Shown in pieces: positions 2,405-40,509 of a stretch of DNA of 43,385 nucleotides. The stretch is from Acidobacteriota bacterium (GTDB taxonomy: Bacteria; Acidobacteriota; Thermoanaerobaculia; Gp7-AA8). Both the position numbers and the translations under genes were made by a program. The stretch lies in the NCBI GenBank assembly GCA_003223635.1, contig QHVS01000110.1:1-43385 (forward strand). The letters run 5' to 3'. How positions within the stretch are numbered: position 1 is the first letter of the stretch; every line of letters begins with the position of its first letter. Under the pieces are notes generated by a model. The model searched no databases. It was not told where the DNA came from and saw only the letters and a program-made list of their open reading frames with translations.

Positions 2405-3738
2405 AGCTTTGGGGCGGCCGGTTCGAGAAAGGACCATCAGATCTGCTCCGGCAGTTCAATGATTCGTTCTCGTTCGATCATCAGCTTCTGTCGGAAGACA
2501 TCGACGGCTCGGTGGCGTGGGCGTACGCAATCGCCGACGCCGGCGTGCTGACGCGCGACGAAGCGCGGTCGATCGTGACGGCGCTCAGCCGCATTCAGCC
2601 TCCGGTGAAATTCAACGAGCACGAAGACGTCCATTCCTATGTGGAATCGAAGCTCCGCGAAGCCATCGGCCCGCTCGCCGGGAAGCTGCATACCGGCCGC
2701 TCGCGAAACGATCAGGTAGCCACCGATCTGAAGCTGTGGTTGAAGCGCGCTTGCGACGAGGCGACCTCAAACATTCGCGCCCTCGCCTTGATCCTGGTCA
2801 AACGTGCCGAAGCCGAGGCAGCGACGCCAATGCCTGGATATACGCACTCCAAGCAGGCCGAGCCGATCACGTTCGGCCACTGGTGCCTGGCCTATGTAGA
2901 GATGTTGCAGCGCGACATCGAGCGCTTCGCCGCGGCCCAGGCGCGCGGGGATGAGTGCCCCCTCGGCGCAGGAGCTCTCGCCGGTGCGCCGCTCCCAATC
3001 GATCGCATGAAACTGGCGCAGTCGCTGGGATTCGCTCGGCCAAGTGCGAATTCGCTCGACACAGTCTCTGACCGCGACTTCGCCGTCGACTATCTTTTCG
3101 CCGCGTCGCTGCTGCTGACGCATCTGTCGCGTCTCGCGGAGGACCTCATCTTCTTCACAAGCGACGAAGCGGGCTACGCTGAATTGCCCGATGCGTTGGC
3201 CACCGGCTCGTCCAGAATGCCGCAGAAGAAAAATCCCGACGTTCTGGAGCTGGTGCGCGGTCACGCCGGCCGGGCCATCGGTGAGCTGACCGGCCTCCTC
3301 GCGGTGATGAAAGGGCTTCCACTTGCGTACGACAAGGATCTGCAGTTGGACAAAGAGCCGCTCTTCCGGATGCGCGTGACACTGGGCGCGGCGCTTCCAG
3401 CGTTGACGGCGCTGATCGAAGGAATCGAGTTGAATCGCGAACGCATGCGCGCCGCTGCGGCCGGCCCGATGCTGATGGCCACCGCAGTTGCTGATGCGAT
3501 GGCCGCACGTGGCCTTCCCTTTCGCGAAGCGCACGAGGTGGTCGGGCGTGAGCTCGCCTCGATCGACGAGCTGGCCAGGGAATATGGCGTCACGCTCGAT
3601 GGCATCCTCGCCTCGAAGAAGGCTTTCGGCGGAACCGCGCCGGAGCGGGTGACGGCGGCGGCGCGCGCGGCCCGGGCGCGTCTGACGTCTTCGACAAGCG
3701 ACCACCGACAACCGACAACCGCCGGGCAGACGCGATGA
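2401..3738 (+). CDS. argH: argininosuccinate lyase
   Basis: The typical N-terminus VKLWGGRFEKGPSD begins at GTG 2401 and overlaps the argG stop (GTGA). GRSRNDQVATD and the fumarate-lyase signature GSSRMPQKKNPD are present. The upstream part of ORF 2230 is out-of-frame overlap with argG. Confidence 0.9.
   Translation: MKLWGGRFEKGPSDLLRQFNDSFSFDHQLLSEDIDGSVAWAYAIADAGVLTRDEARSIVTALSRIQPPVKFNEHEDVHSYVESKLREAIGPLAGKLHTGRSRNDQVATDLKLWLKRACDEATSNIRALALILVKRAEAEAATPMPGYTHSKQAEPITFGHWCLAYVEMLQRDIERFAAAQARGDECPLGAGALAGAPLPIDRMKLAQSLGFARPSANSLDTVSDRDFAVDYLFAASLLLTHLSRLAEDLIFFTSDEAGYAELPDALATGSSRMPQKKNPDVLELVRGHAGRAIGELTGLLAVMKGLPLAYDKDLQLDKEPLFRMRVTLGAALPALTALIEGIELNRERMRAAAAGPMLMATAVADAMAARGLPFREAHEVVGRELASIDELAREYGVTLDGILASKKAFGGTAPERVTAAARAARARLTSSTSDHRQPTTAGQTR
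3692..3719 (+). repeat. tandem heptamer array CGACAAG CGACCAC CGACAAC CGACAAC
   Basis: Four consecutive 7-nt units read directly. They lie in the last codons of argH and end 15 nt before the argJ ATG (3735). Confidence 0.9.
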
Positions 3739-4907
3739 AGCTACCGAAAGGGTTTCTCGCGTCCGGCGTTCGCGCTGGCATTCGAAAGAAGCGTCCGGAC
3801 CTCGGCTTGATCGTCGCCGAGGGGGGCGCAAACGCCGCGGCGGTCTTCACGAAGAATCGCTTTCAGGCCGCGCCGGTCGTCCTTTCCAAATCGTCGCTGA
3901 AGAGGAGCGGCGGACGGGTGAAGGCAGTGGTGGTCAACGCCGGATGTGCGAATGCCGTCACCGGGAAGGAAGGGCTGGACGCGGCGAAGCGCGTGCGCAC
4001 GCGCGCCGCAGCCCTGCTGCGATGCGACGCCGACGAGATCTTTCTGGCTTCTACCGGCGTGATCGGCGTGGTCCTGCCCGATAAGAAAGTGCGAGAAGCG
4101 TTACCCGATTCGATCGCCAGGCTGTCGCAGGGCGGCATCGACGCGCTGTCACACGCCATCCTCACCACCGATGTCGGCCCGAAGGTGACGCAGGCGACGT
4201 TCATGATCGGCGGCAAGCGAGCGCGCATCGTCGGCGTGGCGAAAGGGGCGGGGATGATTCATCCGAACATGGCCACGATGCTGGCCTTCGTCATGACCGA
4301 CGCGGCGATCGCTCCCGCCGTTCTTCAACGTGCGCTCAAAGAAGCGGTCGATCAGAGCTTCAACGCGATCTCTGTCGATGGCGACACTTCGACCAACGAC
4401 TGCGTGCTGGTGATGTCCAGCGGCAAGGCTGGGAACGCGCAGAGCGCCGACAGCACCGAGTTTCAACGCGCGCTCAACACGGTTTGCCGTCAGCTGGCGT
4501 GGATGATCGTCCGCGATGGCGAAGGGGCCACAAGAGTGATGGAGTTGGAGGTACGCGGCGCGCGCAGCGAACGCGATGCCCGGCTGGCTGCGCATGCCAT
4601 CGCCACGTCGCCCCTGGTGAAGACTGCGCTGCATGGCGGCGATCCGAACTGGGGACGCATCCTGGCCGCGGTCGGACGCAGCGGCGCACGATTCTCCATC
4701 CGCAGAGTCTCGCTCAGCGCCGGCCCCATCGCCCTCGTCCGCGACGGCAGCGCCGTCGAGTATCGCGAGAAGGACGCCGCGCGCATCTTCGCCCGCGAGC
4801 GCGTGCCCCTCACGCTCGACCTGGGCGGGGGGAATGGGCGGGTGGTGGTGCTGTCTTCGGATCTCGGTCACGACTACGTGTCGCTGAACGCGGACTACCG
4901 GTCGTAG
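3735..4907 (+). CDS. argJ: bifunctional ornithine acetyltransferase / N-acetylglutamate synthase
   Basis: 390 aa. LPKGFLASGVRAGI N-terminus, autoprocessing site PNMATMLAFVMTDA, ATGA overlap with argH. Confidence 0.93.
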   Translation: MKLPKGFLASGVRAGIRKKRPDLGLIVAEGGANAAAVFTKNRFQAAPVVLSKSSLKRSGGRVKAVVVNAGCANAVTGKEGLDAAKRVRTRAAALLRCDADEIFLASTGVIGVVLPDKKVREALPDSIARLSQGGIDALSHAILTTDVGPKVTQATFMIGGKRARIVGVAKGAGMIHPNMATMLAFVMTDAAIAPAVLQRALKEAVDQSFNAISVDGDTSTNDCVLVMSSGKAGNAQSADSTEFQRALNTVCRQLAWMIVRDGEGATRVMELEVRGARSERDARLAAHAIATSPLVKTALHGGDPNWGRILAAVGRSGARFSIRRVSLSAGPIALVRDGSAVEYREKDAARIFARERVPLTLDLGGGNGRVVVLSSDLGHDYVSLNADYRS

Positions 4908-4956
4908 TGGAGCGGCGGCCTTTAGGCCGCCGGCGGGCTGAAGCCCGCCGCTCCAC
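4907..4956. repeat. GC-rich nested palindrome with three mutually overlapping helices
   Basis: The outer 12-bp helix pairs GTGGAGCGGCGG (4907-4918) with CCGCCGCTCCAC (4945-4956). One inner hairpin is CGGCGGCC-TTTA-GGCCGCCG (4913-4932). A second is CGGCGGGC-TGAA-GCCCGCCG (4931-4950). GTAG tetranucleotides lie at 4904-4907 and 4963-4966. Confidence 0.8.
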
Positions 4957-4978
4957 GCGTTGGTAGACTTCCCTGCCT

Positions 4979-6661: not shown

Positions 6662-6681
6662 AATCCGCGATCCGAGGAAGC

Positions 6682-8049: not shown

Positions 8050-8090
8050 ATTCCCCCTCGCACCTATCCTGAGGTCTCCCTGTCGAGATG

Positions 8091-8124
8091 GTGGAAATTT
8101 GTGGACAGAAGTGGCGATAAGTGG
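8091..8124 (+). promoter_or_regulatory. candidate MraZ operator: four GTGG boxes at exact 10-bp phasing
   Basis: Four consecutive decamers each start with GTGG: GTGGAAATTT GTGGACAGAA GTGGCGATAA GTGGTAAAAA (8091, 8101, 8111, 8121). They sit 40-60 nt upstream of mraZ in an AT-enriched patch. MraZ is known to bind 10-bp-phased direct repeats in its own promoter. Confidence 0.5.
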
Positions 8125-8164
8125 TAAAAACACACATTGAATCGGTTAAAAACGGGCCTTCTTA

Positions 8165-8628
8165 ATGGAACTCAGTGTCTTGATGGGGCATGCCCCCGCT
8201 CGCGTCGACGACAAGGGACGCTTGAAGGTCCCGGCGGATTTCCGCAAGTTCATTGAAGAACGATACGGCTCCGACTGCTTCATGACTGCTTCATTATCTC
8301 CATGGACGGAGAACGCGCGCTGATCTATCCGATGCCGGTCTGGAACGATTTCCAGGGAGGGCTGGCGAAAGTCCCATCAACGTCGATGGCCAAATCCAAG
8401 CTGCTGGAGCGGGCGAATTACTACGGACAGGCGGCGACGATCGACGGGCAAGGACGGCTGCTGATCCCCACTGTGCTCCGCGAAATCGCCGGGATCGCAG
8501 AAGACGTGGTGGTCCTGGGCAACACCGATCACCTGATCGTGTGGAACGAGGAGCGGATCCAGAAGCGACTGGCGAAGAGTCCGTTGAGCGCGGAGGACAT
8601 GAAGGAGTTGGAGCTGCACGGAGTGTAG
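8165..8628 (+). pseudogene. mraZ: mraZ (dcw transcriptional regulator) interrupted by a +11 frameshift
   Basis: The N-terminal half (ATG 8165 or 8183) reads ...GHAPARVDDKGRLKVPADFRKFIEERYGSDCF and stops at TGA 8321. The C-terminal half is ORF 8302..8628 (MDGERALIYPMPVWNDF...GRLLIPTVLRE...) in another frame. Removing one copy of the 11-bp duplication restores a single 145-150 aa MraZ. Confidence 0.8.
8273..8294 (+). repeat. perfect 11-bp tandem duplication GACTGCTTCAT x2
   Basis: Read directly: 8273-8283 is identical to 8284-8294. Confidence 0.95.
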
Positions 8629-8702
8629 TTGCTGAGTTGCTTGGTTGCTAGGTTGCTGGACGGGTGGGACTGAGCAACCCAACAACCAAGTAACCCAGCG
8701 AC
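8628..8702 (+). repeat. intercistronic octamer-built hairpin (mraZ|rsmH)
   Basis: Left arm is GTTGCTGA GTTGCTTG GTTGCTAG GTTGCTGG (8628-8659). Right arm is GAGCAACC CAACAACC AAGTAACC CAGCGACC (8672-8703). Hand pairing of 8628-8657 with 8673-8702 gives 25 WC pairs, 2 GU pairs and 3 mismatches. Confidence 0.85.
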
Positions 8703-8704
8703 CG

Positions 8705-9625
8705 ATGATCCACGATCCAGTTCTTTTACAACCGGTTGTCGATTACCTCCGCCCCAATCGCGAAGACGGAACGCTCGTCGATGCGACGGTAGGGTTGGGT
8801 GGGCACGCGGAGGCGCTGTTGGAGCGCTATCCGCGGGCCCATCTGGTGGCCATCGATCGCGATCCGCGCGCGCTGAAGCTCGCGCGAGAGCGGCTGGGGA
8901 GGTTCGGAAGTCGCGTGACGTTCGCGCAGGGACGTCACGAGTCGCTCATTGACATTCTGAAGCAGTCAAACCTCGAGACCATCAGCGGCCTCGTGGCCGA
9001 CCTCGGCGTCTCCTCGATGCAGCTCGACGACGCGTCGCGCGGATTTTCCTTCCGCCTCGACGCGCCGCTCGACATGCGGATGGGGCCTGACAGCACGACG
9101 GCGGCAACGCTGGTCAACGGCCTCGAGGAACACGAGCTGGCGCGGATCCTCCGCGAATACGGCGAGGAGCCGATGGCCCGGCGCATCGCACGAGCGATCG
9201 TCGAGGCGCGGCAGAGCGCTCCGATCGAGACGACCGGACAGCTCGCGGCGATCGTGCGCGGTGTAAAGAAGTCAAAGCCCCGCGACATTGATCCCGCCAC
9301 GCTGACCTTTCAGGCGCTTCGCATCGCGGCGAATGAGGAGCTGGTCGGACTGGACCGCTTCATCGACGACGCGGTGAGCGTCCTCGAAAGCGGCGCACGA
9401 ATCGCGGTGATCTCGTTCCACTCGCTCGAGGATCGAATCGTCAAACGCGCGCTGCGGCGGCTGAAAGGCGAATGCACCTGTCCGCCCGGCATGCCGGTCT
9501 GCGGATGCGGGGCGAAGGATCTGGTGAGTGTGTTGACAGGACGTCCGGTGACTGCTTCGGAAGACGAGGTGAATCGAAATCCGCGATCGCGCAGCGCCAA
9601 GCTGCGCGTCGCAGAAAAGAAGTAA
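8705..9625 (+). CDS. rsmH: 16S rRNA (cytosine1402-N4)-methyltransferase
   Basis: MIHDPVLLQPVVDYL start at ATG 8705. DATVGLGGHAEALL SAM motif, DLGVSSMQLD, FHSLEDRIVK. The 20 codons upstream in ORF 8645 translate the repeat element. Confidence 0.9.
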   Translation: MIHDPVLLQPVVDYLRPNREDGTLVDATVGLGGHAEALLERYPRAHLVAIDRDPRALKLARERLGRFGSRVTFAQGRHESLIDILKQSNLETISGLVADLGVSSMQLDDASRGFSFRLDAPLDMRMGPDSTTAATLVNGLEEHELARILREYGEEPMARRIARAIVEARQSAPIETTGQLAAIVRGVKKSKPRDIDPATLTFQALRIAANEELVGLDRFIDDAVSVLESGARIAVISFHSLEDRIVKRALRRLKGECTCPPGMPVCGCGAKDLVSVLTGRPVTASEDEVNRNPRSRSAKLRVAEKK

Positions 9626-9643
9626 GGCGGAGCCAGGCAGCAA

Positions 9644-9716
9644 GGGTGAAGGTTGGGGAAGGGTGGGTGTGGCGCGGTGAGCGGGGGCTCGGGAGGGGTG
9701 GAGCGTGGGGGGTGGG
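9644..9716 (+). other. G-run-dense tract (G-quadruplex-prone) in the rsmH-ftsL spacer
   Basis: Nine runs of at least three G in 73 nt on the sense strand, with only six C. Includes GGGGAAGGGTGGG and GGGGGCTCGGGAGGGGTGGAGCGTGGGGGGTGGG. Confidence 0.8.
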
Positions 9717-9792
9717 TGGACGTGGACGCTGCTCGTTGCCGTGCATGTAGGCAAATCTTCACCCTTGTTCCCGGGCTCCGCGCGGCCATGGA

Positions 9793-10167
9793 ATGTACGC
9801 CCAAAAAAGACCGATCGACAACGCTCACATCGTCCGCGAACGCGACCGCCAGCGATTCCGTGAGCTCCTCGCCCTCTTAGGCCTGGGCATTCCGATCGGA
9901 CTGTTCCTTCTCCTCTTCACCTGGCAGAACCTCGAGGTCATCCGGCTGGGCCACGAGGCGACGCGTCTGCAGAAGCAGCGAAAAGACATCGAGAACGCAA
10001 ACAAAGTTCTGCAGTACGAGCTCGACCGCCTGACATCGCTGCATTCGGTCGAGCAGAAGGCGACTGCACTCGGCTTCGAGCGAACCGATCCGCGCGTGGT
10101 GGTGATGGTACAAAAGCCCGCGGACCACAGGCCGCGGCCCGCGGACCGCGACAGGACCCGGCGATGA
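9793..10167 (+). CDS. ftsL: cell division protein FtsL
   Basis: 124 aa. Single TM segment (LALLGLGIPIGLFLLLF) followed by a coiled-coil-like segment. Canonical position between rsmH and ftsI, with ATGA overlap with ftsI. Confidence 0.7.
   Translation: MYAQKRPIDNAHIVRERDRQRFRELLALLGLGIPIGLFLLLFTWQNLEVIRLGHEATRLQKQRKDIENANKVLQYELDRLTSLHSVEQKATALGFERTDPRVVVMVQKPADHRPRPADRDRTRR
10119..10153 (+). repeat. degenerate tandem heptamer array (CGCGGAC type)
   Basis: Units are CGCGGAC CACAGGC CGCGGCC CGCGGAC CGCGACA. They encode the FtsL tail PADHRPRPADRDR and end 10 nt before the ftsI ATG. Confidence 0.55.
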
Positions 10168-12116: not shown

Positions 12117-13600
12117 AGCTGCGCGATCTGCTCCAGGGTGTGCCTGTGCGCTCCTCGCAGGGAAATCTCGATGCGGAGATCACGGCCGTGGTGGGCGATT
12201 CGCGCCTGGCTGTTCGCGGCTCGCTCTTTGTGGCCATTCGTGGCATGCAGCAGGACGGCGCGAAGTTCGTCGACTCCGCGGTGGAAAAGGGGGCGATCGC
12301 CGTGGTCAGCGATCACCCGCTCGCCACTCGCCGTTCGCCGCCGGCATGGGTGGAGGTGGAGGATGCCCGCTCCGCACTGGCTCTGATCGCTGCCAACTTC
12401 TACGGGCACCCGGCGGACAAGCTGACCCTTGTCGGGGTCACCGGAACTTCAGGGAAGACGACCACCACGAAGATGCTCGAGTCGATCTTCGACGCGGCCG
12501 GCGAGCCGGTGGGGTTGATCGGGACGATCGAGTATCGCGCCGGCGAGGAGAGGTTGGTCGCCGATCGCACCACGCCCGATGCCGTCGTGCTGCAGCAGTG
12601 GTTTGCCAAAATGGTGGCCGCCGGCGTCAAGCACGCGGTCATGGAAGTCTCCTCGCACGCCCTGGCCCTGAAGCGGACCTACGGGATTCAGTTTGGCGCG
12701 GCGGTGTTCACGAACCTCTCGCAGGACCACTTCGATTTTCACAAAGGCTTCGAAGATTACTTCGCCGCGAAGAAGAGCCTGTTCGATCAGATCGATCGCA
12801 AGCGCCGGACCGCGGTCGTCAATATCGACGACGAGTACGGCCGGCGTCTGGCCGGCGAACTGAAAAAAGCGGTCATCTCGTTCGGCCGCTCGCCCAAGGC
12901 CGACATTCGCCCGGCCGATAAATTCGCCATCGACGTGCGCGGCCTGCGCGGCCGCGTCCACACGCCGGCAGGCGACATTCGCGTGGAGTCGCGACTTCTC
13001 GGCCTGCCGAACCTCTACAACTGGATGGCCGCCATCGGCGCCGCGGTGGCGGTGGGCATCCCGCGCAAAGCCATCGAAACGGGGATCCGCAATCTCGCCT
13101 CCGTGCGCGGCCGGTTCGAATATGTGGAATCCGCGGGCGGCCCCACGGTGATCGTCGACTACGCGCACAAACCTGACGCGCTGGAGAAGCTGCTTCACGC
13201 GGTACGCGATCTCGCGGCGAAGAAGCGCCTGGTGCTCGTCTTCGGCTGCGGCGGAGATCGAGACAAGGACAAGCGGCCGATGATGGGCGACATCGCCGGC
13301 CGGCTGGCCGACTTCACCGTGCTGACCAGCGACAATCCGCGGAGCGAGAACCCCGACTTCATCATCGACGACATCGAGAAGGGCATCCGCCGAGGAACGT
13401 ACGTGCGGATGACCGACCGGCGCGAGGCAATCGCCCGGACGATCGACGAGGCGTCCGATGATGACGTCATCGTGATCGCCGGGAAAGGTCACGAGAGCTA
13501 CCAGGTGGTGGGCGATCAGATCATTCACTTCGATGATCGGGAGGAAGCGGAATTCGCCCTGAAAAAGAGGCATGAAAAAGTAGCACCGAAAACAGGTTGA
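12113..13600 (+). CDS. murE: UDP-MurNAc-L-Ala-D-Glu:meso-DAP ligase
   Basis: 495 aa. GVTGTSGKTTT P-loop and LTSDNPRSENP (DNPR motif, indicating meso-DAP specificity). dcw context. Confidence 0.93.
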   Translation: MKLRDLLQGVPVRSSQGNLDAEITAVVGDSRLAVRGSLFVAIRGMQQDGAKFVDSAVEKGAIAVVSDHPLATRRSPPAWVEVEDARSALALIAANFYGHPADKLTLVGVTGTSGKTTTTKMLESIFDAAGEPVGLIGTIEYRAGEERLVADRTTPDAVVLQQWFAKMVAAGVKHAVMEVSSHALALKRTYGIQFGAAVFTNLSQDHFDFHKGFEDYFAAKKSLFDQIDRKRRTAVVNIDDEYGRRLAGELKKAVISFGRSPKADIRPADKFAIDVRGLRGRVHTPAGDIRVESRLLGLPNLYNWMAAIGAAVAVGIPRKAIETGIRNLASVRGRFEYVESAGGPTVIVDYAHKPDALEKLLHAVRDLAAKKRLVLVFGCGGDRDKDKRPMMGDIAGRLADFTVLTSDNPRSENPDFIIDDIEKGIRRGTYVRMTDRREAIARTIDEASDDDVIVIAGKGHESYQVVGDQIIHFDDREEAEFALKKRHEKVAPKTG

Positions 13601-13608: not shown

Positions 13609-13638
13609 TTGATATTGATGACAACATCAGCTTATGAT
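13609..13638 (+). promoter_or_regulatory. candidate sigma70-like promoter TTGATA-N18-TATGAT in the murE-murF spacer
   Basis: Hexamers read at 13609-13614 and 13633-13638 inside an AT-rich island (about 13558-13650). This is a motif match only. Confidence 0.3.
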
Positions 13639-13783
13639 TTGGCGCACTGGAAACGGTGCTCTCTCCCGGCTCCGTCGGTCAGTTTCAGCGTGGGTGTGTG
13701 GACGGTGATCGCGGGGCAGTCCCGGGGGAAGGGATGCGATCGCCGTTGTGGAAGCGCGGCGGGGCCGGGAGAGAACATCGCAG

Positions 13784-13811
13784 GTCGCGGATCGCGGATC
13801 GCGGATCGCAG
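13784..13811 (+). repeat. tandem heptamer array GTCGCGG ATCGCGG ATCGCGG ATCGCAG
   Basis: Four consecutive 7-nt units read directly. They end 9 nt before the murF ATG (13821). Confidence 0.9.
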
Positions 13812-13820
13812 AGGGCAGCC

Positions 13821-15200
13821 ATGCCCACCATGACTTTCAAGCAACTCGCCGAGATGACGAACGGCGAGGTCGTTCAGAATCCCGATCTCACCGTCTCCTC
13901 GGTGGTCATCGACAGCCGCGAAGTGAAGCCGGACTCGGTCTTCTTCGCCATCAAGGGCGATCGCCTGGATGGACATCAATTCCTTCCCCAGGCTCTGCAG
14001 ACGGCGCGGGGCGCCGTCGTGGCTCGCGTTCCCGAATCACTGCCGCGCGACAAAGGCACGGCACTGCAGGAACTGGCGCATTCGATTCGCCAGCGTTACA
14101 AATTCCTGTTGATCGCCATCACCGGCTCAGCAGGCAAGACCACGACGAAGGAGATGATCGCCGCATTGGTCGGCACCGAGCGGCGCACCTGGAAGTCGTG
14201 GGGCAACTTCAACAATCTGATCGGTGCACCCCTCTGCCTGGACAACATGCCGGACGATGCTGAAGTGGTGGTCAGCGAGATGGGCATGAACCACAAAGGC
14301 GAGATCGCCACGCTGGCCGGCCTCACGCATCCCGATGTCGGCGTCTACACGAACATCGGACCGGTGCACATCGAGTTCTTCGGAACGATCGAGAAGATCG
14401 CCGAGGCGAAACGGGAGTTGCTGGAGAATGTGAAGCCCGACGGCACGATCGTTCTGAACGTCGACAACGACTACGTGATGAACATCAGCCGCGGCTTTCC
14501 AGGGCGAAAGGTGACGTACGGCATCGATCGTCCGGCGGACTTTCGCGGCACCGACGTCCGCGACCGCGGCCTGCTGGGGACCGCCTTCGAGCTGGACGGA
14601 CGTTCCTTCGAGCTCTCGCTCCCGGGGCGGCACAATCTGGAGAACCTTCTGGCCGCGATCGCCACCGCGCGTTCCATCGGTATCTCCTGGGAAGGGATCG
14701 AGCGCGGTGTGCGCGAGGTGAAGCCGGCCTACCACCGCGGCGTGATCCTTCCTCTGCGCGGCGCGACGATCTACGACGATACCTACAATTCCAACCCGTA
14801 CGCTCTGGCCCGCGCCATCCAGCTCCTGGAGCAGGCGGACGTGCGCGGAAGGCGAGTTGCCGTGATCGGCGACATGCTCGAGCTGGGGCCACGCGAGCGC
14901 GAATATCACTATGAAGTCGGCCGGCGCACCACGCCCGAGAGCATCGATGTCGTGATCGCCGTCGGCCCTCGCAGCGAGGCGCTGCTGGAAGGGGCGCGTC
15001 ACTCCGGCTTCGGCGACGACCGCCTCTATCACTTTGCGGACGCCGAGCGCGCCGGCGCATTCCTGCAGTCGTTCATCCAGCCCGGCGATCTGGTCTTGAT
15101 CAAGGCCTCGCGCGGCATCGGTCTCGATAAGATCGTAACGATGCTGCAGTCCGACCAGCGACACGCGACCAGCGACCAGCCGGTGGGGGAGCGGGGCTGA
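13821..15200 (+). CDS. murF: UDP-MurNAc-tripeptide:D-Ala-D-Ala ligase
   Basis: [18 protein letters not shown] is a typical MurF N-terminus. [14 protein letters not shown]-loop is present. The 55 codons upstream in ORF 13656 cross the repeat and spacer and look non-coding. Confidence 0.9.
15152..15179 (+). repeat. tandem heptamer array CGACCAG CGACACG CGACCAG CGACCAG
   Basis: Four consecutive 7-nt units in the last codons of murF (peptide [11 protein letters not shown]). They end 20 nt before the mraY ATG (15200). Confidence 0.9.
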
Positions 15201-16288: not shown

Positions 16289-17595
16289 GGCTACTCGTGG
16301 TGGGAGCGGGCAAATCGGGCGTGGCTGCAGCAAACTTCCTCGCGGAGCGGGGCGAGGACGTTGCCATCAACGATCGCAATCCGTATCCCGATCTTCCCTA
16401 TCCGCTGCACGAACGGGTGACCAGGCTGTTCGGTCAGCAGGACGAGTCTCTTCTCACCGGAGTGGAGTCGGTCATCGTCAGCCCGGGCGTTCCGCTCGAC
16501 GTACCGCTGCTCCGGCACGCTGCGTCGATGCGCATTCCGGTCATCGGCGAGATCGAGCTGGCGTTCCGTCATCTCAAAGGAACGGTCATCGCCATCACCG
16601 GCTCCAACGGCAAGTCGACGACGACGGCCCTGATCGGCGAGATCCTCAAAGTCGCCGGCCGTCAGCCGATCGTGGCCGGCAACATCGGCGAACCGCTGAT
16701 AGCAGCGATCGATCAGGAGAAGCCGCGGACCTACGTGCTGGAGCTTTCGTCGTTTCAACTGGAGACAGTTGACGCGTTCCGGGCGAATGTCGCGCTTCTT
16801 TTGAACATTACGCCCGACCACATGGACCGCTATCCGAACTTCGACGCCTACGCGGCAACAAAGTATCGGGTCCTCCGCAATCAGCAGGCCAGTGACACGG
16901 CGATCGTGAACGCCAGCGAACGTCGTGCTGTCGATCGGGGGTCCCATGCTCGCCTGTGGCGCTTCTCCGCATCGGAGAAGGTGAATGAAGGTGCCTGGCT
17001 GGATGGCGACCAGATGGTCTTGAGCATCGGCGGCGAAGAGCGGCGCATACCGCGTTCTGCGTTGAAGCTGGAAGGGCTGGCGAACGTGGAAAACGCTCTG
17101 GCCGCATGGCTTGCCGCGCGCGCGGTGGGCGTCGATGACGTGGCGGTGCAGATCGCGTTCGGATCGTTCCGAGGGCTGCCGCACCGGATGGTGATGGTGC
17201 GGGAGAAGGGCGGCGTTCGTTACGTCAACGACTCGAAAGGGACGAACGTCGACGCCACGCTCAAATCGCTGGAAAGTTTTCCCCCGTCCAGCGTGCTGCT
17301 GATCCTGGGAGGCAAAGACAAAGCGGGTGAGTTCGAGCGGATGCGCGATCTCATTGCGGAGAAGACACGCTACGTGATCACCATCGGCGCCGCCGCGGAT
17401 CGCATCTCCAGCGCGCTGGAGGGCTCGGCGACCATCGTTCCGATGGGCGATATGGAGCGCGCGGTGCGCTGGGCGTCGGAACATGCCAAAACCGGCGACA
17501 CGGTGCTCCTCTCGCCGGCCTGCGCCAGCTTCGATCAGTACAAGAACTTCGAGCATCGGGGACAACATTTTGAGGGGTTGGTGAGGAGGTTGTGA
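16285..17595 (+). CDS. murD: UDP-MurNAc-L-Ala:D-Glu ligase
   Basis: 436 aa. [15 protein letters not shown] Rossmann N-terminus and [12 protein letters not shown]-loop. ATGA overlap with mraY. Confidence 0.93.
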
Positions 17596-17671
17596 GTTGC
17601 TCGGTTGCTAGGTAGCTGAGTTGCTGGGTGTTTCGCCTGGCAACCGAGCAACCTAGCAACTGAGGAACCCA
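17593..17671 (+). repeat. intercistronic octamer-built hairpin (murD|ftsW), paralogue of 8628-8702
   Basis: Left arm is GAGTTGCT CGGTTGCT AGGTAGCT GAGTTGCT. Right arm is GGCAACCG AGCAACCT AGCAACTG AGGAACCC. Lower stem 17593-17617/17647-17671 has 21 WC pairs, 1 GU pair and 3 mismatches. Upper stem 17620-17628/17636-17644 has 7 WC and 2 GU pairs, with a 7-nt loop. Confidence 0.85.
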
Positions 17672-17676
17672 GGAAC

Positions 17677-18774
17677 ATGAGCCGCAAACTCTCATATGAC
17701 ACGTGGTTATTCGCCGCTGCGCTGCTGATCGTGGTCATCGGCCTGGTGATGATCTACAGCGCCTCGGCCATCATCACCACGCAGAAAGTCGGCTTGGACA
17801 ATCCGTACTACTTCATCACCCGTCAGTGCATCTGGCTGCTCGGCGGAAGCGCGCTGATGCTGATCCTGATGCATGTCGATCTGAGCCGGCTGCGCGATCG
17901 TCGCGTGATCTACGCGGCGATGGGCGTCCTGGGGATTGCCCTGGTGGTGGTGCTGTTCCAAACACCGGTGAACGGAACACACCGCTGGATCGTGTTTCCC
18001 AGCTTCCGGCTGCAGCCGAGCGAATTCGCGAAGCCGGTGATCGTGCTGTTCCTCGCTTCGTTCCTCGCCCGGCGCGAGAGCCGGATCAACGAGGTCACCT
18101 CGACGCTGCTGCCGCTCGGTTTCACGATCGCCGTGTTCGCGGGACTCATCCTCATCGAGCCCGATTTCGGCACCGCGGCGACGCTGGTGCTGGTCACAGC
18201 GGGGATGGTGTTCGCCGCCGGCATCGCCTGGAACCGCGTGGCCATCTTCTCGCTGATGGTGATTCCCGCGGCGGCCATGGTGGCCTTCAGCGCGGCGTAT
18301 CGACGCGATCGACTCTTCACGTTTCTCAATCCGGAGGCCGATCCACTGGGCAAGGGTTTTCAGGCCATGCAGTCGCTGATTGCGCTCGGAACCGGCGGCC
18401 TGCACGGATTGGGCATCGGCAACGGGCGGCAGAAACTGTTCTTCCTGCCCGAGCCGCACACGGATTTCATCTTCTCCATCATCGGCGAGGAACTGGGGTT
18501 CATCGGCGCCTTCGGGCTGATCGCGCTCTTCGCGTTTCTGGTGTGGCGCGGCTACCGCGTGGCGCGTTTCAGCCAGGAGCGCTTCGACTACTACGCGGCG
18601 CTCGGATTCACTCTGATGATCGCCGTGCAGGCCTTGATCAACATCAGCGTGGCATTGTGCCTTCTTCCGACGAAGGGGCTACCGCTGCCGCTGGTCAGCT
18701 ACGGCGGCTCCTCGCTGACGACCAGCCTGATCGCGGTCGGCATGCTGCTGAATCTCTCGCAACAATCGGGCTGA
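17677..18774 (+). CDS. ftsW: SEDS peptidoglycan glycosyltransferase FtsW
   Basis: 365 aa polytopic protein. SEDS-family motifs (RLQPSEFAKP, EPHTDFIFSIIGEELGF, PLPLVSYGGSS). Position between murD and murG. Confidence 0.9.
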   Translation: MSRKLSYDTWLFAAALLIVVIGLVMIYSASAIITTQKVGLDNPYYFITRQCIWLLGGSALMLILMHVDLSRLRDRRVIYAAMGVLGIALVVVLFQTPVNGTHRWIVFPSFRLQPSEFAKPVIVLFLASFLARRESRINEVTSTLLPLGFTIAVFAGLILIEPDFGTAATLVLVTAGMVFAAGIAWNRVAIFSLMVIPAAAMVAFSAAYRRDRLFTFLNPEADPLGKGFQAMQSLIALGTGGLHGLGIGNGRQKLFFLPEPHTDFIFSIIGEELGFIGAFGLIALFAFLVWRGYRVARFSQERFDYYAALGFTLMIAVQALINISVALCLLPTKGLPLPLVSYGGSSLTTSLIAVGMLLNLSQQSG

Positions 18775-24678: not shown

Positions 24679-24706
24679 CTTAGCTATTAGCTGTTAGCTC
24701 TTGGAT
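24679..24706 (+). repeat. tandem heptamer array CTTAGCT ATTAGCT GTTAGCT (CTTGGAT)
   Basis: Three units with an identical TTAGCT core plus a degenerate fourth. They begin 12 nt after the ftsZ stop, in the convergent spacer. A weak AGCTCTT/AAGAGCT 7-bp stem (24696-24702/24719-24725) overlaps the array. Confidence 0.7.
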
Positions 24707-24747: not shown

Positions 24748-26142
24748 CTATGCGGGTGGCGGGGAGAGGGACCCGGCACCAACTGTTCCGGGGCGCGGTT
24801 CGCCGCGCCCCGTGTTTTCCTGCAATGGTCCCGACGCAAACGCGGTCCCGAGGATCAGAAGCGAGAGGAGTGGCTGCGAGACCCGCGGAAGGGTCCATGA
24901 CATCTGCATCGCCAGGCCGCTCGTGTACTGCAGATACAGGAATGCGAAGAAGGCGAAGAGCAGCGGGAGCGAGATCAGAAGCGGCAACGCGTCGATCAGC
25001 CGACGCGGCGAGCGAACGGCTACGCAGATCAACACGGCCGCGGGGATGAGCCACGACATTCCCCAGCATCCGGCGGAGAGGCCCTTCGGGGCCTCGGTGA
25101 GGATGACCGGGAGATTTCGAAGGAGAAGACCTTGAAAGTTCGTGAACCGGTGATAGCCGACGGGAAGACCGAAGCGGTATTGATATCCGAACCAGATGGA
25201 GATGGAAGCGGCCGTGCTGAGCGTCAGCAACGCCACGCGCCGCACGACGCTCGCATCTCGCCGCAGCAGATCTCGAACCGCGATTCCGAAGAGCATGGCG
25301 CCGATGAACGCGAGCGCTTCCGCTTTGGTCAGCGCTGCACCGGCGAATGCCGCAGCGGCAATCCAGCGGCTCCGCGGATCGTAGCGCTCTGCGATGATGG
25401 CCACCCCCGCGACGGAGATGTATGCCACGAGTGTCGCGTCCGCGTTTCCTCCGCAGCCGGAATAGGCGAAGCTGGCCGCCATGGCGGCCGCCCAGAACGC
25501 CGACACGGCGGCGGCGAAATCGCGTCCGAAAGCGCGCTCCAGTGACCAGCGAATGAAAGGAATGGGAGCAACGAGCCACACCGTCGACATGCCTGCAGCG
25601 GTGATCCACGGCATCCGGCGCGAGAAGAGAAGACCCCAGGCTTGCACCACAGGCACGAGCGGCGGGTAATCAACGTGGGGCGGCGGAAATCGGGAAAGCA
25701 AGAAGCCAGGATCGAGCGCCGCGGCGGCGGCGAAGCGCACCGCCTTCACGCCCCAGAAGAGCACGTAGTCCGGGGAGACCGACTGCGTAGTGATGATGGA
25801 AAGCGCGAAATGAAGAACGGAGATCAGCACGATCGCGTTGGCCACATGCGTCGCGACGAGCGTCCGTCTTCCTGCCAGCTGTGGTGGGGAAGAAGGGATT
25901 CGCGGCCAGAGCAAGACAGTCAAACTCGCCGCGACGAGCGGCAGCGATAATCCGATGACGTTCCACCGAATGCCAGCGATCGAGAAGATCGTCGCCTCGA
26001 TCGTAAGGAGCAGCGCGCCTGCCAGGAATGCAAAGCCGATCCGCGCTGCGCGCGAGTCGATGCCGGTCACTCGATGCGCGGCCAGCAACATGCCGAATAG
26101 CGGAAGCGCCGCGTAGGAGAGGAGGTAGATCGCCGATGTCAT
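24748..26142 (-). CDS. polytopic integral membrane protein of unknown function (GT-C / polymerase-like topology)
   Basis: 464 aa from MTSAIYLLSYAALPLF. Many hydrophobic helices are visible in the translation. The ATG overlaps the upstream stop (ATGA). I recognise no family motif. Confidence 0.6.
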   Translation of the reverse strand: MTSAIYLLSYAALPLFGMLLAAHRVTGIDSRAARIGFAFLAGALLLTIEATIFSIAGIRWNVIGLSLPLVAASLTVLLWPRIPSSPPQLAGRRTLVATHVANAIVLISVLHFALSIITTQSVSPDYVLFWGVKAVRFAAAAALDPGFLLSRFPPPHVDYPPLVPVVQAWGLLFSRRMPWITAAGMSTVWLVAPIPFIRWSLERAFGRDFAAAVSAFWAAAMAASFAYSGCGGNADATLVAYISVAGVAIIAERYDPRSRWIAAAAFAGAALTKAEALAFIGAMLFGIAVRDLLRRDASVVRRVALLTLSTAASISIWFGYQYRFGLPVGYHRFTNFQGLLLRNLPVILTEAPKGLSAGCWGMSWLIPAAVLICVAVRSPRRLIDALPLLISLPLLFAFFAFLYLQYTSGLAMQMSWTLPRVSQPLLSLLILGTAFASGPLQENTGRGEPRPGTVGAGSLSPPPA

Positions 26143-32577: not shown

Positions 32578-32596
32578 ATGAGTTGGCGGTTCGCAG

Positions 32597-33103: not shown

Positions 33104-33960
33104 GGCGTGTACCTCACCACTTCGCCCGGGATCTTGCGCGTGTGCAGGATGATCACTTCTTCGATGCCGCTGAAGTCGACGCTTGGCCGCACCGCGATGT
33201 TCTTGAAGAGCTCCTGTCCCTTCTCCGCCTTGACGATCGTGCCGACGGGGATTCCTTTCGGATAGATGCCGTCGATTCCCGCCGTTTGAACGTTGTCGCC
33301 GGGCTGCACGTCGGCCAGCGACGGAATGTCCAGGAGCTGCGCGCCGGCGCCGCCATCGCCGCGCAGCACGCCTTGCCGGCGAGTCCGCTCGATCAGCACG
33401 CCGACCGCTGCGTTGCTGTCGGTGATCAGCTGGACCTTGGACAGATCTTTGGTGGTCAGGATCACACGGCCAATCAGTCCACTGGCGTTGGCCACGGCGT
33501 CATTGACCTGGATGCCTGCGCTGGAGCCACGATCGATGATGATCGACTTGAAACGGCTGGACGTGTCGAGCATCACCGCCTGAGCCATGGTCGTGGGCAT
33601 GGTGAACTGTTCGGAGTACCCGAGCAGACCGCGCAGACGTTTCAGGTCTCCTTCCGACTGGCGCAGCTTCAGGTTCTCCGTGGTGAGCTGAATGACCTTC
33701 TGATGGAGTTGAACGTTCTCGTCCACCGAGTGCCGCATGTCCAGATAGCCGTGGTACATGTCGGAGGCGCTCTGACCGATCCAGTTGACCGCTCTCGGCA
33801 CGGGCGAAAAGATGGTCATCACCGTCCGCTCGAACATCGTGCGGGTCTCGCCGAGATACCGCGTCCGGCTGCTGAGACTCATCAGGATGAACAGCAGCGA
33901 GAGGACAACGATGAACAGGAGCGTCGGTCTGCGGGGGATTACGTCTACGGGTACTGCCAT
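33100..33960 (-). CDS. mreC: rod shape-determining protein MreC
   Basis: 286 aa. N-terminal TM, coiled-coil (ENVQLHQKVIQLTTENLKLRQ) and beta-barrel region with GIDGIYPKGIPVG. Confidence 0.85.
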   Translation of the reverse strand: MAVPVDVIPRRPTLLFIVVLSLLFILMSLSSRTRYLGETRTMFERTVMTIFSPVPRAVNWIGQSASDMYHGYLDMRHSVDENVQLHQKVIQLTTENLKLRQSEGDLKRLRGLLGYSEQFTMPTTMAQAVMLDTSSRFKSIIIDRGSSAGIQVNDAVANASGLIGRVILTTKDLSKVQLITDSNAAVGVLIERTRRQGVLRGDGGAGAQLLDIPSLADVQPGDNVQTAGIDGIYPKGIPVGTIVKAEKGQELFKNIAVRPSVDFSGIEEVIILHTRKIPGEVVRYTP

Positions 33961-33997
33961 GGTTCGCGAACTGCTCTGAGCAGAATTCAGGCCATTG

Positions 33998-36585
<2,588 letters not shown>

Positions 36586-36740
36586 CGGACGAGGCTCGAA
36601 TCTTTATAACACAGGGATTGGCCGCGTTTGCCGAGGGGCCGGGGAATAGGTAGACTGTCGCGTTTTTTACGGGTAGTCGCGATCGCCCCGGTCCCGCCAG
36701 AGCGCGGTCGCTCCAAACATTCGAACGAGGTTCATTCCCG

Positions 36741-38693: not shown

Positions 38694-39085
38694 TGACCGC
38701 CATCCTGCCGAAGTGGGGTGAGCCTGCGATCCGCGTGCTGATGATGCCGCGCGATACCAATGCGCAGGGAACGATCTTCGGCGGCGTGATTCTTTCCTAC
38801 ATCGACCAGGCCGGGGCGATCGAGGCGCGCCGCCAAGGCGCCAACATCATGCTCACCGTAGCCATGGACAAGATCACGTTCCATCAGCCCGTGTTCGTCG
38901 GCGATCTGGTCAGCTTCTGGACCGAGACGATTCGCATCGGCAACACCTCGATCACCGTGAAGGTCGTGGTCGATGTGTTCCGCGGCAATGGTTCCGCGCA
39001 GAAACTGCTGGTCACCGAAGCGCAGGTGGTCTACGTGAACGTGGGTGAAGACCGGAAACCCGCGCCCATCCGGCGAGCGGGCTAA
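38693..39085 (+). CDS. hotdog-fold acyl-CoA thioesterase (YciA-like)
   Basis: 130 aa. MMPRDTNAQGTIFGGVILSYIDQAG motif. GTG start shares one base with the ppiD stop (TAGTG). Confidence 0.8.
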   Translation: MTAILPKWGEPAIRVLMMPRDTNAQGTIFGGVILSYIDQAGAIEARRQGANIMLTVAMDKITFHQPVFVGDLVSFWTETIRIGNTSITVKVVVDVFRGNGSAQKLLVTEAQVVYVNVGEDRKPAPIRRAG

Positions 39086-40428
39086 CTTTTTTTCCGCTCG
39101 CCGCTCGCCTCGCGCCGCGCACTTCGCATCTTGTCCAGCCGCTCCTTGATCTCCCGTTCCAGGCCGAGCCCCTTCGGCTCGTAAAACCGCCGCCCCGCCA
39201 GCGACTCCGGAAGGCATTCCATCGCCGCGGTCTGCTCTTCGAAATCGTGTGCGTACTGATAACCGCGGCCATAGCCAAGCTCCTGCATCAGGCGGGTGGG
39301 AGCGTTGCGAATGTGCAGGGGGACAGGCGGATTGTCGCCCCGCCGCACCTCGTGCACCGCTTCGCTGTATCCGACATAGACAGCATTCGACTTCGGCGCG
39401 GCCGCGAGGTAAGTCGCAAGTTGGGCGAGGGCAACGCCGGCTTCGGGCATTCCGATGAAGTGCGTAGCTTCTTTCACCGCGACGGCCAGGATCAGCGCCT
39501 GTGGGTCGGCGTTTCCCACATCCTCGGAAGCCGCCCGCACCAGTCGCCGGGCGATGTACAGCGGATCTTCGCCTCCTTCAAGCATGCGCACCAGCCAGTA
39601 GATCGCAGCGTCCGCGTCGCCGTTGCGAATCGACTTGTGCAGCGCGGAGATGATGTTGTAGTGCTCTTCACCGCCCTTGTCGTACATCAGCGACCGGCGC
39701 TGCAGGATCGTCTGCACCTTCGCTGCATCCACCGGGTTGTCCTCTGCCCGAGCGGTCTCCACGACGAGTTGCAGGCTGGTCAGTCCCTGTCGCGCATCGC
39801 CGGCCGAAGTGGCAGCCATGAAATCGAGCGCGTCTTCGGTCACCTCGATTCCGAACTTTTGCACCGCCGGATCGGTTACCGCGCGCCGAAGAATGGTCAT
39901 CACCTGTTCGCGCTCCAGGGGCGGCAGTACGACGACCTTGCATCGCGACAGGAGCGCCGAGTTGACCTCGAACGAGGGGTTTTCAGTGGTTGCTCCGATC
40001 AGGGTGATGTCGCCCGCTTCCACGTAAGAGAGAAACGCGTCCTGCTGCGCCTTGTTGAAGCGATGGATCTCATCGATGAAGACGATCGTTTTGACAGCCC
40101 GTCCCTGGCGCAGCTTGCGCGCCTCTTCCATCAGCACCTTGATGTCTTTGATGGACGTGCTCGTCGCGGAGAACGGCACGAATCGGGCCTGGGTGGTGCG
40201 GGCGATGATACGGGCCAACGTGGTCTTGCCGGAGCCGGGCGGCCCCCAGAAGATCATCGACGGGATGCGATCTGTTTCGATCGCCGTACGAAGGAACCGC
40301 CCTTCGCCCAGAAGATCATCGAGGCCGACGACCTCCCCGAGCGATTTCGGCCTCAGCCGTTCGGCGAGGGGAGCCTCGGGACGGTTGGGCGGGTCGAAGG
40401 TGGGTTCGTCGAAGAGTGAGCCGGTCAT
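39082..40428 (-). CDS. rarA: replication-associated recombination protein A (AAA+ ATPase)
   Basis: 448 aa. Walker A GPPGSGKTTLA, Walker B IVFIDEIHRFNK, MgsA C-terminal region (HYNIISALHKSIRNGDADAAIYW). Confidence 0.92.
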   Translation of the reverse strand: MTGSLFDEPTFDPPNRPEAPLAERLRPKSLGEVVGLDDLLGEGRFLRTAIETDRIPSMIFWGPPGSGKTTLARIIARTTQARFVPFSATSTSIKDIKVLMEEARKLRQGRAVKTIVFIDEIHRFNKAQQDAFLSYVEAGDITLIGATTENPSFEVNSALLSRCKVVVLPPLEREQVMTILRRAVTDPAVQKFGIEVTEDALDFMAATSAGDARQGLTSLQLVVETARAEDNPVDAAKVQTILQRRSLMYDKGGEEHYNIISALHKSIRNGDADAAIYWLVRMLEGGEDPLYIARRLVRAASEDVGNADPQALILAVAVKEATHFIGMPEAGVALAQLATYLAAAPKSNAVYVGYSEAVHEVRRGDNPPVPLHIRNAPTRLMQELGYGRGYQYAHDFEEQTAAMECLPESLAGRRFYEPKGLGLEREIKERLDKMRSARREASGERKKS

Positions 40429-40438
40429 GGGAGAACCG

Positions 40439-40509
40439 GAATGTTAAATGTTAAATGTTGAATGTTGAATCTGACTTTTTTCGAACTTCGAAATTCGAAC
40501 TTCACGAAC
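40439..40509. repeat. two adjacent AT-rich tandem heptamer arrays
   Basis: The first array is GAATGTT AAATGTT AAATGTT GAATGTT GAATCTG (40439-40473). The second, after the spacer ACTTTTTT, is CGAACTT CGAAATT CGAACTT CACGAAC (40482-40509). Both lie in the spacer between the dehydratase stop and the rarA start. Confidence 0.85.

Follow-up and report, generated by a model that had tools for sequence, protein, structure and literature searches.

Heptanucleotide tandem arrays at gene ends in the dcw region of an Acidobacteriota genome and their likeness to STRR repeats

The 43,385-nt contig QHVS01000110.1 of an Acidobacteriota bacterium of the Thermoanaerobaculia lineage (assembly GCA_003223635.1), referred to below as the window, contains numerous short tandem arrays of 7-8-nt units, most of them at the ends of genes. 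A preliminary description of this DNA considered them to be locked to cistron boundaries, which raises the question whether they act there as signals or are repeats that are tolerated there. Results of our analysis indicate that the arrays belong to the known class of heptanucleotide simple repeats, since the features of that class which we tested were found: an excess of tandem 7-nt units, dispersal in several unit families, a non-coding bias near the ends of open reading frames (ORFs), and an abundance that is sporadic among lineages. The explanation that we favor, with a probability of about one half, is that they are lineage-specific, neutral or selfish heptanucleotide (in some cases octanucleotide) repeats similar to the short tandemly repeated repetitive (STRR) sequences of cyanobacteria, and not dedicated boundary signals.

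Number, placement and length of the arrays

Arrays were called with Tandem Repeats Finder (TRF), and those of at least 2.8 copies were compared with the arrays of 50 dinucleotide shuffles. Period-7 arrays were found 13 times in the window, compared with 0.46 on average and 2 at most in the shuffles, and period-8 arrays 3 times against 0.26, whereas periods 4-6 and 9-14 were at background level in the window in the same test. A TRF array was found at each position listed in the preliminary description, and what had been taken at 39094 for a two-unit trace is an array of 3.6 copies. The 15 arrays within 43 kb represent at least 10 units. Ten of them are mostly non-coding, in a window of which, according to the curated gene map, 4.5% is non-coding (binomial p = 7.5e-11). 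The claim that every array abuts a stop or start codon holds for 14 of the 15, which lie within 60 nt of such a codon, and fails for the array at 12317-12341, which lies inside murE and had been overlooked.

A search with MraY led to 80 related loci, the nearest of which (81-94% identity) all come from metagenome-assembled genomes (MAGs) of Thermoanaerobaculia / Acidobacteriota. The window and 43 close Thermoanaerobaculia loci (44 loci, 635 kb) were compared with 37 distant loci; designations such as L029 refer to compared loci and contigs. Among the 148 arrays of the 44 close loci, 102 are intergenic (6.6% of bases are non-coding), 19 are located at the edges of genes and 27 in their interior (86% of bases), which corresponds to an array density about 49-fold higher in non-coding DNA than in gene interiors. 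Period-7 arrays have a density of 1.95 per 10 kb in the close loci vs. 0.28 in the distant loci, where arrays are at background level, and no density difference between the two sets was found for periods 5, 6, 9 and 12. Even among the close relatives, the load per orthologous locus of about 20 kb ranges from 0 (L015, L016) to 14-16 (L029, L034, and the window).

The arrays are quantised in length at about 4.3 units (30-32 nt). The copy number of period-7 arrays has its mode at 4.25-4.75 (54 arrays, 30-31 nt) and falls sharply to 4 arrays at 5.0 copies; that of period-8 arrays peaks at 4.0. Arrays with at least 95% matches are either up to 20 nt or 27-33 nt long, with two in between. The same four-unit mode is known from published repeats that form G-quadruplexes (PMC4692102), and a need for four G- or C-tracts, forming a G-quadruplex or an i-motif, might explain it here also in the case of a few units with GGG or CCC, e.g., CCCGACA, GGGAGTG and CCCACCC. 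Most units, such as CGACAAC, CGACCAG, ATCGCGG, GTTGCTNN, AGCGAGC, AATGTTA and GAAGGCA, contain no such run and show the same mode. Since most units here are without G- or C-tracts, the four-unit rule is not generally due to G-quadruplexes; judging by the unit sequences, this explanation appears to be largely refuted for the lineage, and we consider it very improbable.

Look-ups of the exact MraY, thioesterase and ArgJ proteins identified 21 strain contigs from other soil samples, 98.7-100% identical to the window. The preliminary description had named beforehand the absence of the arrays from an independent assembly as an outcome that would speak against them; all arrays covered by the 21 contigs are present there. 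Short-read metagenome assemblies can mishandle repeats, but arrays of about 30 nt are far below read and k-mer length, the contigs come from different samples and pipelines (ENA scaffolds, MEGAHIT k141, JGI, Logan), and long-read-derived MAGs (L006, L043) have the same architecture, so that the chance of an assembly or sequencing artefact is practically negligible.

No gain or loss of a unit was found in 64 array-by-strain comparisons, which does not support the earlier suggestion that the arrays are prone to slippage. Within the species, arrays show 0.6% substitutions, compared with 1.35% in the remaining non-coding DNA and 0.49% in coding sequence, and hypermutability of the arrays, considered as a candidate property, was rejected on account of the first two values. 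The exceptions are a single 1-nt indel (17603 in L082) and one dynamic site at 40480, where five strains have (AACATTC)6-7 (7 units in L211, 6 in the others), the true inverted partner of the adjacent (AATGTTA)4.4, and the window has (TTCGAAC)3.4. The array at 40440 thus also has an inverted partner, in strains other than that of the window, which corrects the preliminary description; the arm at 40480-40503 was rewritten in the strain of the window. The constancy of copy number also bears on the possibility that the arrays are contingency loci, at which slippage alters copy number, frame or spacing and so switches genes, as simple repeats do in pathogens (PMC4679880). This possibility is favored by the position of the arrays near gene ends and by their unit length, since 7 is not divisible by three; the genes concerned, however, are essential housekeeping genes, and for the coding arrays, which are in frame within tails and loops, a change by one unit would be lethal rather than regulatory. 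Gene switching of this kind is therefore most improbable.

Arrays within genes and at orthologous junctions

The arrays are not locked to boundaries as had been proposed: perfect arrays of four 7-nt units occur inside tolerant loops of murG and murE in relatives, and the window has one array in murE. Interior arrays cluster at two orthologous sites. The first is the MurG interdomain loop (between EFF and RLLIFGGSQGS), with perfect (CGACAAC)4 in L008, (CCGAGGC)4 in L022, (CGGCATC)4 in L026 and (CCACCGG)4 in L035, and with decayed arrays in L002, L033, L037, L040 and L043. The second is a MurE loop, where the arrays, including that at 12317 of the window and those of L034, L035 and L036, are in-frame insertions relative to a short baseline. 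In-frame arrays of different units are also found in the MurF tail of six lineages, just upstream of a kept Shine-Dalgarno sequence and TGATG overlap.

Coding arrays have a distinctive composition. None of the 38 has stop-codon potential on the sense strand, against about 20% expected, and their sense-strand T content is 1.6-4.9% vs. 20.7% in intergenic arrays. As all three frames are used in the translation of a heptamer array, a T-free unit yields no stop codon and no residue with U at the second codon position; this clear selection filter accounts for the C/A-rich units of the tail arrays listed in the preliminary description. All four of the tails described there as non-conserved C-terminal extensions (ArgH, FtsL, MurF and RarA) are indeed translated. 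In the two that were compared with orthologues, FtsL and MurF, the alignment ends ahead of the tail, so that these two tails are non-conserved. Their interpretation as intergenic elements absorbed into upstream ORFs has to be abandoned: the ancestral junctions are ATGA stop/start overlaps, and the arrays were inserted in frame upstream of the kept stop codon and Shine-Dalgarno sequence. Through such arrays, essential proteins of the cell wall and of cell division acquire hydrophilic segments about 10 residues long, which offers a concrete route to low-complexity insertions. Being open in all frames, T-free arrays also account for non-conserved protein tails and mislead the calling of ORFs and start codons, e.g., in the long ORFs 8645-9625 and 13656-15200. 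The bias of arrays toward gene boundaries is most likely what remains after purifying selection, i.e., a survivorship effect that shows where arrays are tolerated.

The comparison of orthologous junctions reveals repeated gains. Where certain genomes have 6 nt or an ATGA overlap, others have paired arrays of 70-160 nt. The mraZ/rsmH spacer is 6 nt long in seven relatives, some relatives have a 6-7-bp hairpin there (GTTGCCT...AGGCAAC), and in the window, L029, L033 and L034 the spacer comprises 79-97 nt, in which a loop separates four units from their four complementary counterparts, with a different unit in each genome. At murD/ftsW and mraY/murD, many genomes have overlapping codons (TAATG, ATGA) and others have 70-240-nt inserts with paired arrays. 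According to a neighbour-joining tree, at least seven patchy gains occurred at murD/ftsW, with sister genomes differing. Higher-order repeats are found at mraY/murD of L007 (11060-11270) and L009 (3260-3500), where an entire hairpin unit of about 95 nt (arms CAGAGAT / GATCTCT) is present in 2-3 tandem copies. By these insertions, overlapping junctions have been turned into 80-130-nt spacers with a 30-bp hairpin, which may alter the processing or translational coupling of the dcw operon, and the differences between species at array junctions are possible typing markers. Non-periodic palindromic inserts, similar to repetitive extragenic palindromic (REP) sequences or to miniature transposable elements with inverted repeats (MITEs), were observed separately at mraY/murD of L029 (11090-11205) and L002 and past the M20 peptidase gene stop codon in L083 (77-150); flanked by a CGATGAG duplication, they represent a second class of small inserts at overlapping junctions.

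Unit sequence changes between genomes at one site and recurs within genomes at different sites. In one and the same loop of MurG, the sister genomes L026 and L035 have units that are perfect but different, and in the tail of MurF, L040 has CCGACAA in place of the ACCGCCA of the related L039 and L042. Among 101 arrays in relatives, at least 50 canonical units were distinguished, the CGACAAC type being the commonest. In several genomes a unit is shared between loci: L035 has ACCGGCC in its MurE loop and also in its MurG loop, L036 has ACCGCCA at three loci, L029 and the window have GAAGGCA and GTTGCT, respectively, at two loci each, and CGACAAC is shared in L040. A search for seeds in the flanking gene ends found a seed-like sequence at the murD end of the window (GTTGTGA beside GTTGCTN) and at none of the other junctions.

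About half of the arrays form inverted pairs, with predicted 26-32-bp hairpins between genes. The three long hairpins of the window that had been reported before are confirmed by folding predictions: -42.3 kcal/mol (z -5.1) for the mraZ-rsmH pair (8627-8658 with 8672-8700), -55.3 kcal/mol (z -6.3) for the murD-ftsW pair, and -66.0 kcal/mol (z -10.6) for the perfect 26-bp hairpin of the FecR-like/mreB pair. Paired arrays fold strongly, whereas single arrays are unstructured. In the terminator/promoter scan, no U-tract or T-run was found after the sense-strand hairpins of paired arrays, which sets them apart from Rho-independent terminators; one weak consensus terminator match, with a 6-bp stem at 10118-10137 on the opposite strand, overlaps the ftsL-tail array. 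A gathering-score search of the whole window against Rfam 15 gave 0 matches. In 16 of 34 pairs, each arm is perfect in itself yet mismatched to the other once per unit (e.g., GTTGGCG and CCGACAA in L040), and the loops between arms of a shared unit are unrelated in sequence.

The explanation of the arrays as STRR-like repeats may be formulated as follows. An array would arise in one piece, as a block of about 30 nt (four units and 2-3 nt), by repeated copying of a 7-8-nt seed during replication or repair, and its inverted partner by fold-back copying or by amplification of both arms of a small pre-existing stem-loop. The units within an arm are kept alike, and unit families spread to other loci of the genome, in each case by processes that we can only infer. 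Selection would then decide which blocks survive, and those observed are in intercistronic spacers, dispensable C-terminal tails and surface loops, in coding sequence only if in frame and T-free on the sense strand, so that neither a stop codon nor a hydrophobic residue is encoded. In transcripts, the predicted intercistronic hairpins, which have no U-tract, may bring the upstream stop codon beside the downstream start codon and thereby probably preserve translational coupling or act as sites of mRNA stability or processing, as a side effect rather than as the reason for their existence.

Several observations weigh against this explanation. No generating enzyme or mechanism has been identified, and stepwise slippage predicts a broad spread of copy number and variation between strains, neither of which was seen. 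The loci compared are dcw-cluster neighbourhoods throughout, many of them orthologous, so that p-values overstate independence. Certain arrays begin 0-4 nt from stop codons, which could reflect function, and their conservation between strains is compatible with selection to keep them. In 25 of 31 co-oriented pairs, many of which are orthologous, the G-rich arm is 5' in transcript sense, which could likewise reflect function; nearly all informative genes being co-oriented, this bias fits the direction of transcription and of replication alike. The sharing of a unit between different loci, found in 7.2% of within-genome pairs vs. 1.6% of between-genome pairs (Fisher p = 4e-7 from non-independent comparisons), and the ATGA(G) present on both sides of the inserts in overlapping junctions (4-12 nt duplicated, with the maximum in L021) fit a copy-and-insert process better than growth in place.

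Miniature mobile elements are a serious rival, though one that we regard as improbable on the whole. A trans-acting enzyme such as a REP-associated tyrosine transposase (RAYT), a single-strand transposase of the IS200/IS605 type or a reverse-transcription route would copy either the blocks of about 30 nt or entire hairpin units (70-130 nt) into new sites, and the arrays would then be akin to REPINs, MITEs or the very small dispersed repeats of Nostoc. Precise empty sites, patchy and repeated gains at the same junctions, the quantal size of whole blocks, the true in-frame insertions in the MurE loop, the unit families recurring at 2-3 loci per genome, the presence of GAAGGCA at non-orthologous loci of L008 and L029, and the occurrence of (CGACAAC)n in contigs of 33-74% GC all speak for it. 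The flanking duplications could represent target-site duplications or merely the need of both genes to survive at ATGA overlaps, in which case selection alone could explain them. In MITEs, IS-derived terminal inverted repeats go together with target-site duplications of constant length; the duplications at the present inserts vary in length, and no IS-like termini were seen. The following observations speak against mobile elements: copies sharing arms have different loops and no conserved termini, the units are diverse (at least 50 among 101 arrays), many arrays are single-armed, arms are kept uniform separately and thus acquire periodic mismatches, Pfam hits within the window include no transposase gene, and hits in viral contigs are few.

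A selected role in RNA, which we consider quite unlikely, would treat the hairpins as cis-acting RNase III or stability sites or translational-coupling devices and the unstructured C/A-rich arrays as loading sites of ribosomes (S1), CsrA, Csp or Rho upstream of starts. The position of arrays at stop and start codons, the C/A-rich arm beside ATG in the strand bias just mentioned (25 vs. 6), strong hairpins free of terminator U-tracts, Shine-Dalgarno-like last units in the ftsW arm, stability across strains and the translational role proposed for TAACTGA repeats (PMC4679880) are consistent with it. Evidence against this role is provided by the presence or absence of arrays among close relatives at junctions of essential genes, by unit sequences that are not conserved at orthologous sites, by the occurrence of the same arrays in coding loops and tails, by arms that drift out of complementarity, and by the absence of a covariation or family signal.

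Array catalogue and other features of the window

The window has a GC content of 63%. It encodes argD-G-H-J, ggt and an M20 peptidase, followed by the complete dcw cluster (mraZ-rsmH-ftsL-ftsI-murE-murF-mraY-murD-ftsW-murG-murC-ftsQ-ftsA-ftsZ). On the strand opposite to dcw are guaA, a DUF2461 gene, HU, rodA-mrdA-mreDCB and a FecR-like gene, and next along the window are a PpiD-like gene, a thioesterase gene, rarA, a cysK-like gene and the gene of a Big_7 protein. The arrays are listed in Table 1.

Table 1. Tandem arrays of the window, with position, strand, unit and genetic context
Array	Position	Strand	Unit and copies	Context
argH tail	3692-3721	+	(CGACAAC)x4.3, T-poor	translated as argH C-terminal tail, 14 nt before argJ ATG
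mraZ-rsmH, 5' arm	8627-8658	+	x4.0, TRF unit AGTTGCTG, as (GTTGCTNN)x4	begins at mraZ stop codon
mraZ-rsmH, 3' arm	8672-8700	+	(NNAGCAAC)x3.6	ends 5 nt before rsmH ATG
ftsL tail	10118-10150	+	(CCGCGGA)x4.7	non-conserved ftsL C-terminal tail, 14 nt before ftsI ATG
murE interior	12317-12341	+	(CCGCTCG)x3.6	201 nt into murE (codons ~69-77), in-frame insertion, variable loop
murE-murF spacer	13777-13812	+	(ATCGCGG)x4.7	single, unstructured, 3' end of spacer, 9 nt before murF ATG
murF tail	15152-15180	+	(CGACCAG)x4.1	in-frame insertion upstream of kept Shine-Dalgarno and TGATG overlap with mraY
murD-ftsW, 5' arm	17588-17629	+	(GTTGCTNN)x~5	begins at murD stop codon
murD-ftsW, 3' arm	17636-17682	+	(NNAGCAAC)x~5	runs into ftsW ATG
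ftsZ downstream	24680-24699	+	(TTAGCTA)x2.9, short	14 nt past ftsZ stop, upstream of hairpin 24789-24812
FecR-like/mreB inverted pair	35091-35150	-	sense (AGCGAGC)x4 then (TGCTCGC)x3	between FecR-like gene stop and mreB
rarA tail	39094-39118	-	sense (CGAGCGG)x3.6 (TRF CCGCTCG x3.6)	translated as rarA C-terminal tail
rarA upstream	40440-40470	-	sense (TAACATT)x4.4 (TRF AATGTTA x4.4), AT-rich	12 nt upstream of rarA start
rarA upstream, second arm	40480-40503	-	sense (GTTCGAA)x3.4 (TRF TTCGAAC x3.4)	

Certain details supplement the table. The argH/argJ junction has kept its ATGA stop/start overlap despite the argH-tail array, which is identical in the strain contig L221. The last units of the 3' arm upstream of ftsW are altered to GGAAC, which is Shine-Dalgarno-like. 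In the FecR-like/mreB pair, TRF delimits the arms as 35091-35110 (GCGAGCA) and 35123-35150 (GCTCGCT), and strains differ there only by A/G swaps at the variable position of the unit. The rarA-tail array overlaps a 9-11-bp stem at the convergent ends of the thioesterase gene and rarA.

Other features of the dcw region were observed besides the arrays. Upstream of mraZ, at 8091-8130 (+), there are four direct GTGG boxes at 10-nt spacing (GTGGAAATTT GTGGACAGAA GTGGCGATAA GTGGTAAA), which we presume to resemble a candidate MraZ operator, as MraZ binds direct repeats. The mraZ gene itself contains at 8273-8294 a perfect 11-nt tandem duplication (GACTGCTTCAT x2) that is present in the window only and not in strains L081, L083 and L221; it shifts the frame, leaving an ORF of 108 aa vs. 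the 150 aa called in strains. The rsmH-ftsL spacer comprises at 9638-9770 (+) a G-rich element of about 133 nt, conserved in 24 Thermoanaerobaculia loci (the window and 23 others, e.g., L016:4659-4792). It is closed by a stem of 17 bp (CAAGGGTGAAGG...CTTCACCCTTG), and its inner stem shows compensatory changes (CG/GC/UA). An E-value search of 9600-9800 found no relevant Rfam family, and the element, located upstream of ftsL, is a candidate structured RNA. The TRF row 9695-9716 (GGGGTGG) was considered as an array and rejected as a part of this element.

Directly past the murE stop codon, within a conserved murE-murF spacer of about 220 nt, there is a promoter-like sequence TTGATA-18-TATGAT (13609-13638). 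In murF, 24 nt (8 codons) present in strains L081-L084 are missing from the window at 14059, an in-frame indel polymorphism unrelated to the arrays. Past ftsZ, a strong terminator-like hairpin at 24789-24812, with 10 GC pairs and a T-run, is a candidate for the dcw terminator and is separate from the arrays. An ORF of 464 aa at 24748-26142 (-) has coding-like codon usage and no Pfam hit and is conserved in strain L081; the AT skew around it is unusually high (0.21 over 24-26 kb).

Comparison with known heptanucleotide repeats

The papers that we searched contain no link between Acidobacteriota and heptamer repeats. The analogy with STRR sequences, proposed in the preliminary description, is borne out. 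In cyanobacteria, STRRs occupy tens to hundreds of dispersed loci per genome. Those of heterocystous cyanobacteria (GTTGTCA, GTTGTTA and CCACTGA in Nostoc/Anabaena PCC 7120) and the arrays described here are alike tandem 7-nt units at many dispersed and mainly intergenic loci, in several unit families, one of which, GTTGTC[A/G] / [C/T]GACAAC, is common to both; GTTGTCA arrays (ttgtcagttgtcagttgtca) occur 44 times in Nostoc PCC 7120 (PMC2408588). The present arrays differ in belonging to Acidobacteriota (63% GC) and may differ in being tightly quantised at about 4.3 units, half of them in inverted pairs and some in frame in essential genes of the cell wall and of division. The further statement that repeats of the STRR type are not known at boundaries does not agree with published data: heptamers of Xanthomonas and Nostoc are 89-93% intergenic (PMC4692102), and TAACTGA repeats are located upstream of starts (PMC4679880). 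In many bacteria, according to Mrazek et al. 2007 as cited in PMC4679880 and PMC4692102, heptanucleotide repeats outnumber the other long simple repeats.

In Xanthomonas, about 185 GGGAATC arrays per genome, mostly of four units, include 70-75 inverted pairs (Rehm et al. 2015, PMC4692102). The GGGAATC / GGGGA(C/T)T arrays of Xanthomonas and Nostoc have a mean distance of 28 nt to the upstream ORF and are seldom located between divergent genes, and related species have them at the same junctions, flanking housekeeping genes, with different length and sequence. The authors found no function and ascribed the four-unit rule to G-quadruplex formation (PMC4692102). The four-unit mode, the inverted pairs, the intergenic position and the same junctions with varying sequence are common to both systems. 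While the Xanthomonas repeats form one family of G-tract units, the arrays of Thermoanaerobaculia comprise dozens of families, mostly without G- or C-tracts, under the same four-unit rule.

TAACTGA direct repeats are located just upstream of start codons in marine Beggiatoaceae, cyanobacteria and Bacteroidetes (MacGregor 2015, PMC4679880); they comprise 2-6 copies, are in some cases inside ORFs, and are not clearly related to the function of the genes. One or two substitutions separate TAACTGA from CAACTGA / CAACCGA, the commonest family in the loci studied here and in a metagenome scan. The genome with TAACTGA has a single dominant unit and one reported inverted instance, in contrast to the many units and frequent inverted pairs found here. 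The exact scan of metagenomes for (CGACAAC)3 identified 120 unrelated loci (L091-L210) with a GC content of 33-74%, in which period 7 is dominant (279 arrays), with the mode at about 4.5 copies and a tail to 36; the (CGACAAC) heptamer family is thus spread far beyond the Thermoanaerobaculia lineage. In these metagenome loci, (CGACAAC)n is often found beside TGACAAC units, with 16-36 copies in some contigs. Spread of the arrays by phages was considered and rejected, as 19 of 2.9 million viral contigs contain (CGACAAC)3.

As the CAAC[C/T]GA / TAACTGA family is found not only in Thermoanaerobaculia but also in cyanobacteria, in Beggiatoaceae and in contigs with a GC content of 33-74%, a more speculative and rather doubtful proposal can be made, namely, that blocks of four heptamers are written or transposed by a mechanism that is independent of sequence, common to distant phyla and equipped with a ruler of about 30 nt. 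If so, these blocks would be the smallest self-propagating DNA modules known, repeatedly inserted in frame in MurG, MurE, MurF and FtsL and kept uniform across dispersed loci of a genome, and the G-quadruplex account of the four-unit rule would be wrong in general. In any case, the arrays provide, in an uncultured soil phylum, a clean case of the four-unit preference of bacterial heptamer repeats, which would require some mechanistic length ruler.

With REP, BIME and REPIN sequences, the arrays have in common intergenic units of 70-130 nt with two inverted arms of about 30 nt, long hairpins at gene ends in operons, and presence or absence among relatives. REPs are conserved families with a palindrome and a cognate RAYT, whereas the arms described here are internally periodic and variable and have no conserved termini. 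A conserved palindromic family common to all copies, as in REP or REPIN sequences, was not found, units and loops being different and arms being shared in few pairs; RAYT (TnpA_REP) is not among the Pfam hits of the 43-kb window, the sole part of the genome covered. Rickettsia palindromic elements (RPE) are selfish DNA inserted in frame at tolerant surface positions of essential genes, to which they add peptide. They are palindromes of 100-150 nt with a conserved sequence, in contrast to the tandem heptamer blocks of about 30 nt found here.

Compared with what has been described for heptanucleotide repeats, the arrays of Thermoanaerobaculia add to this known class a four-unit rule obeyed by dozens of units that are unable to form G-quadruplexes, arrays in frame in essential genes, and evidence for the appearance of whole blocks, for units kept alike within an arm, and for unit families spreading within a genome.

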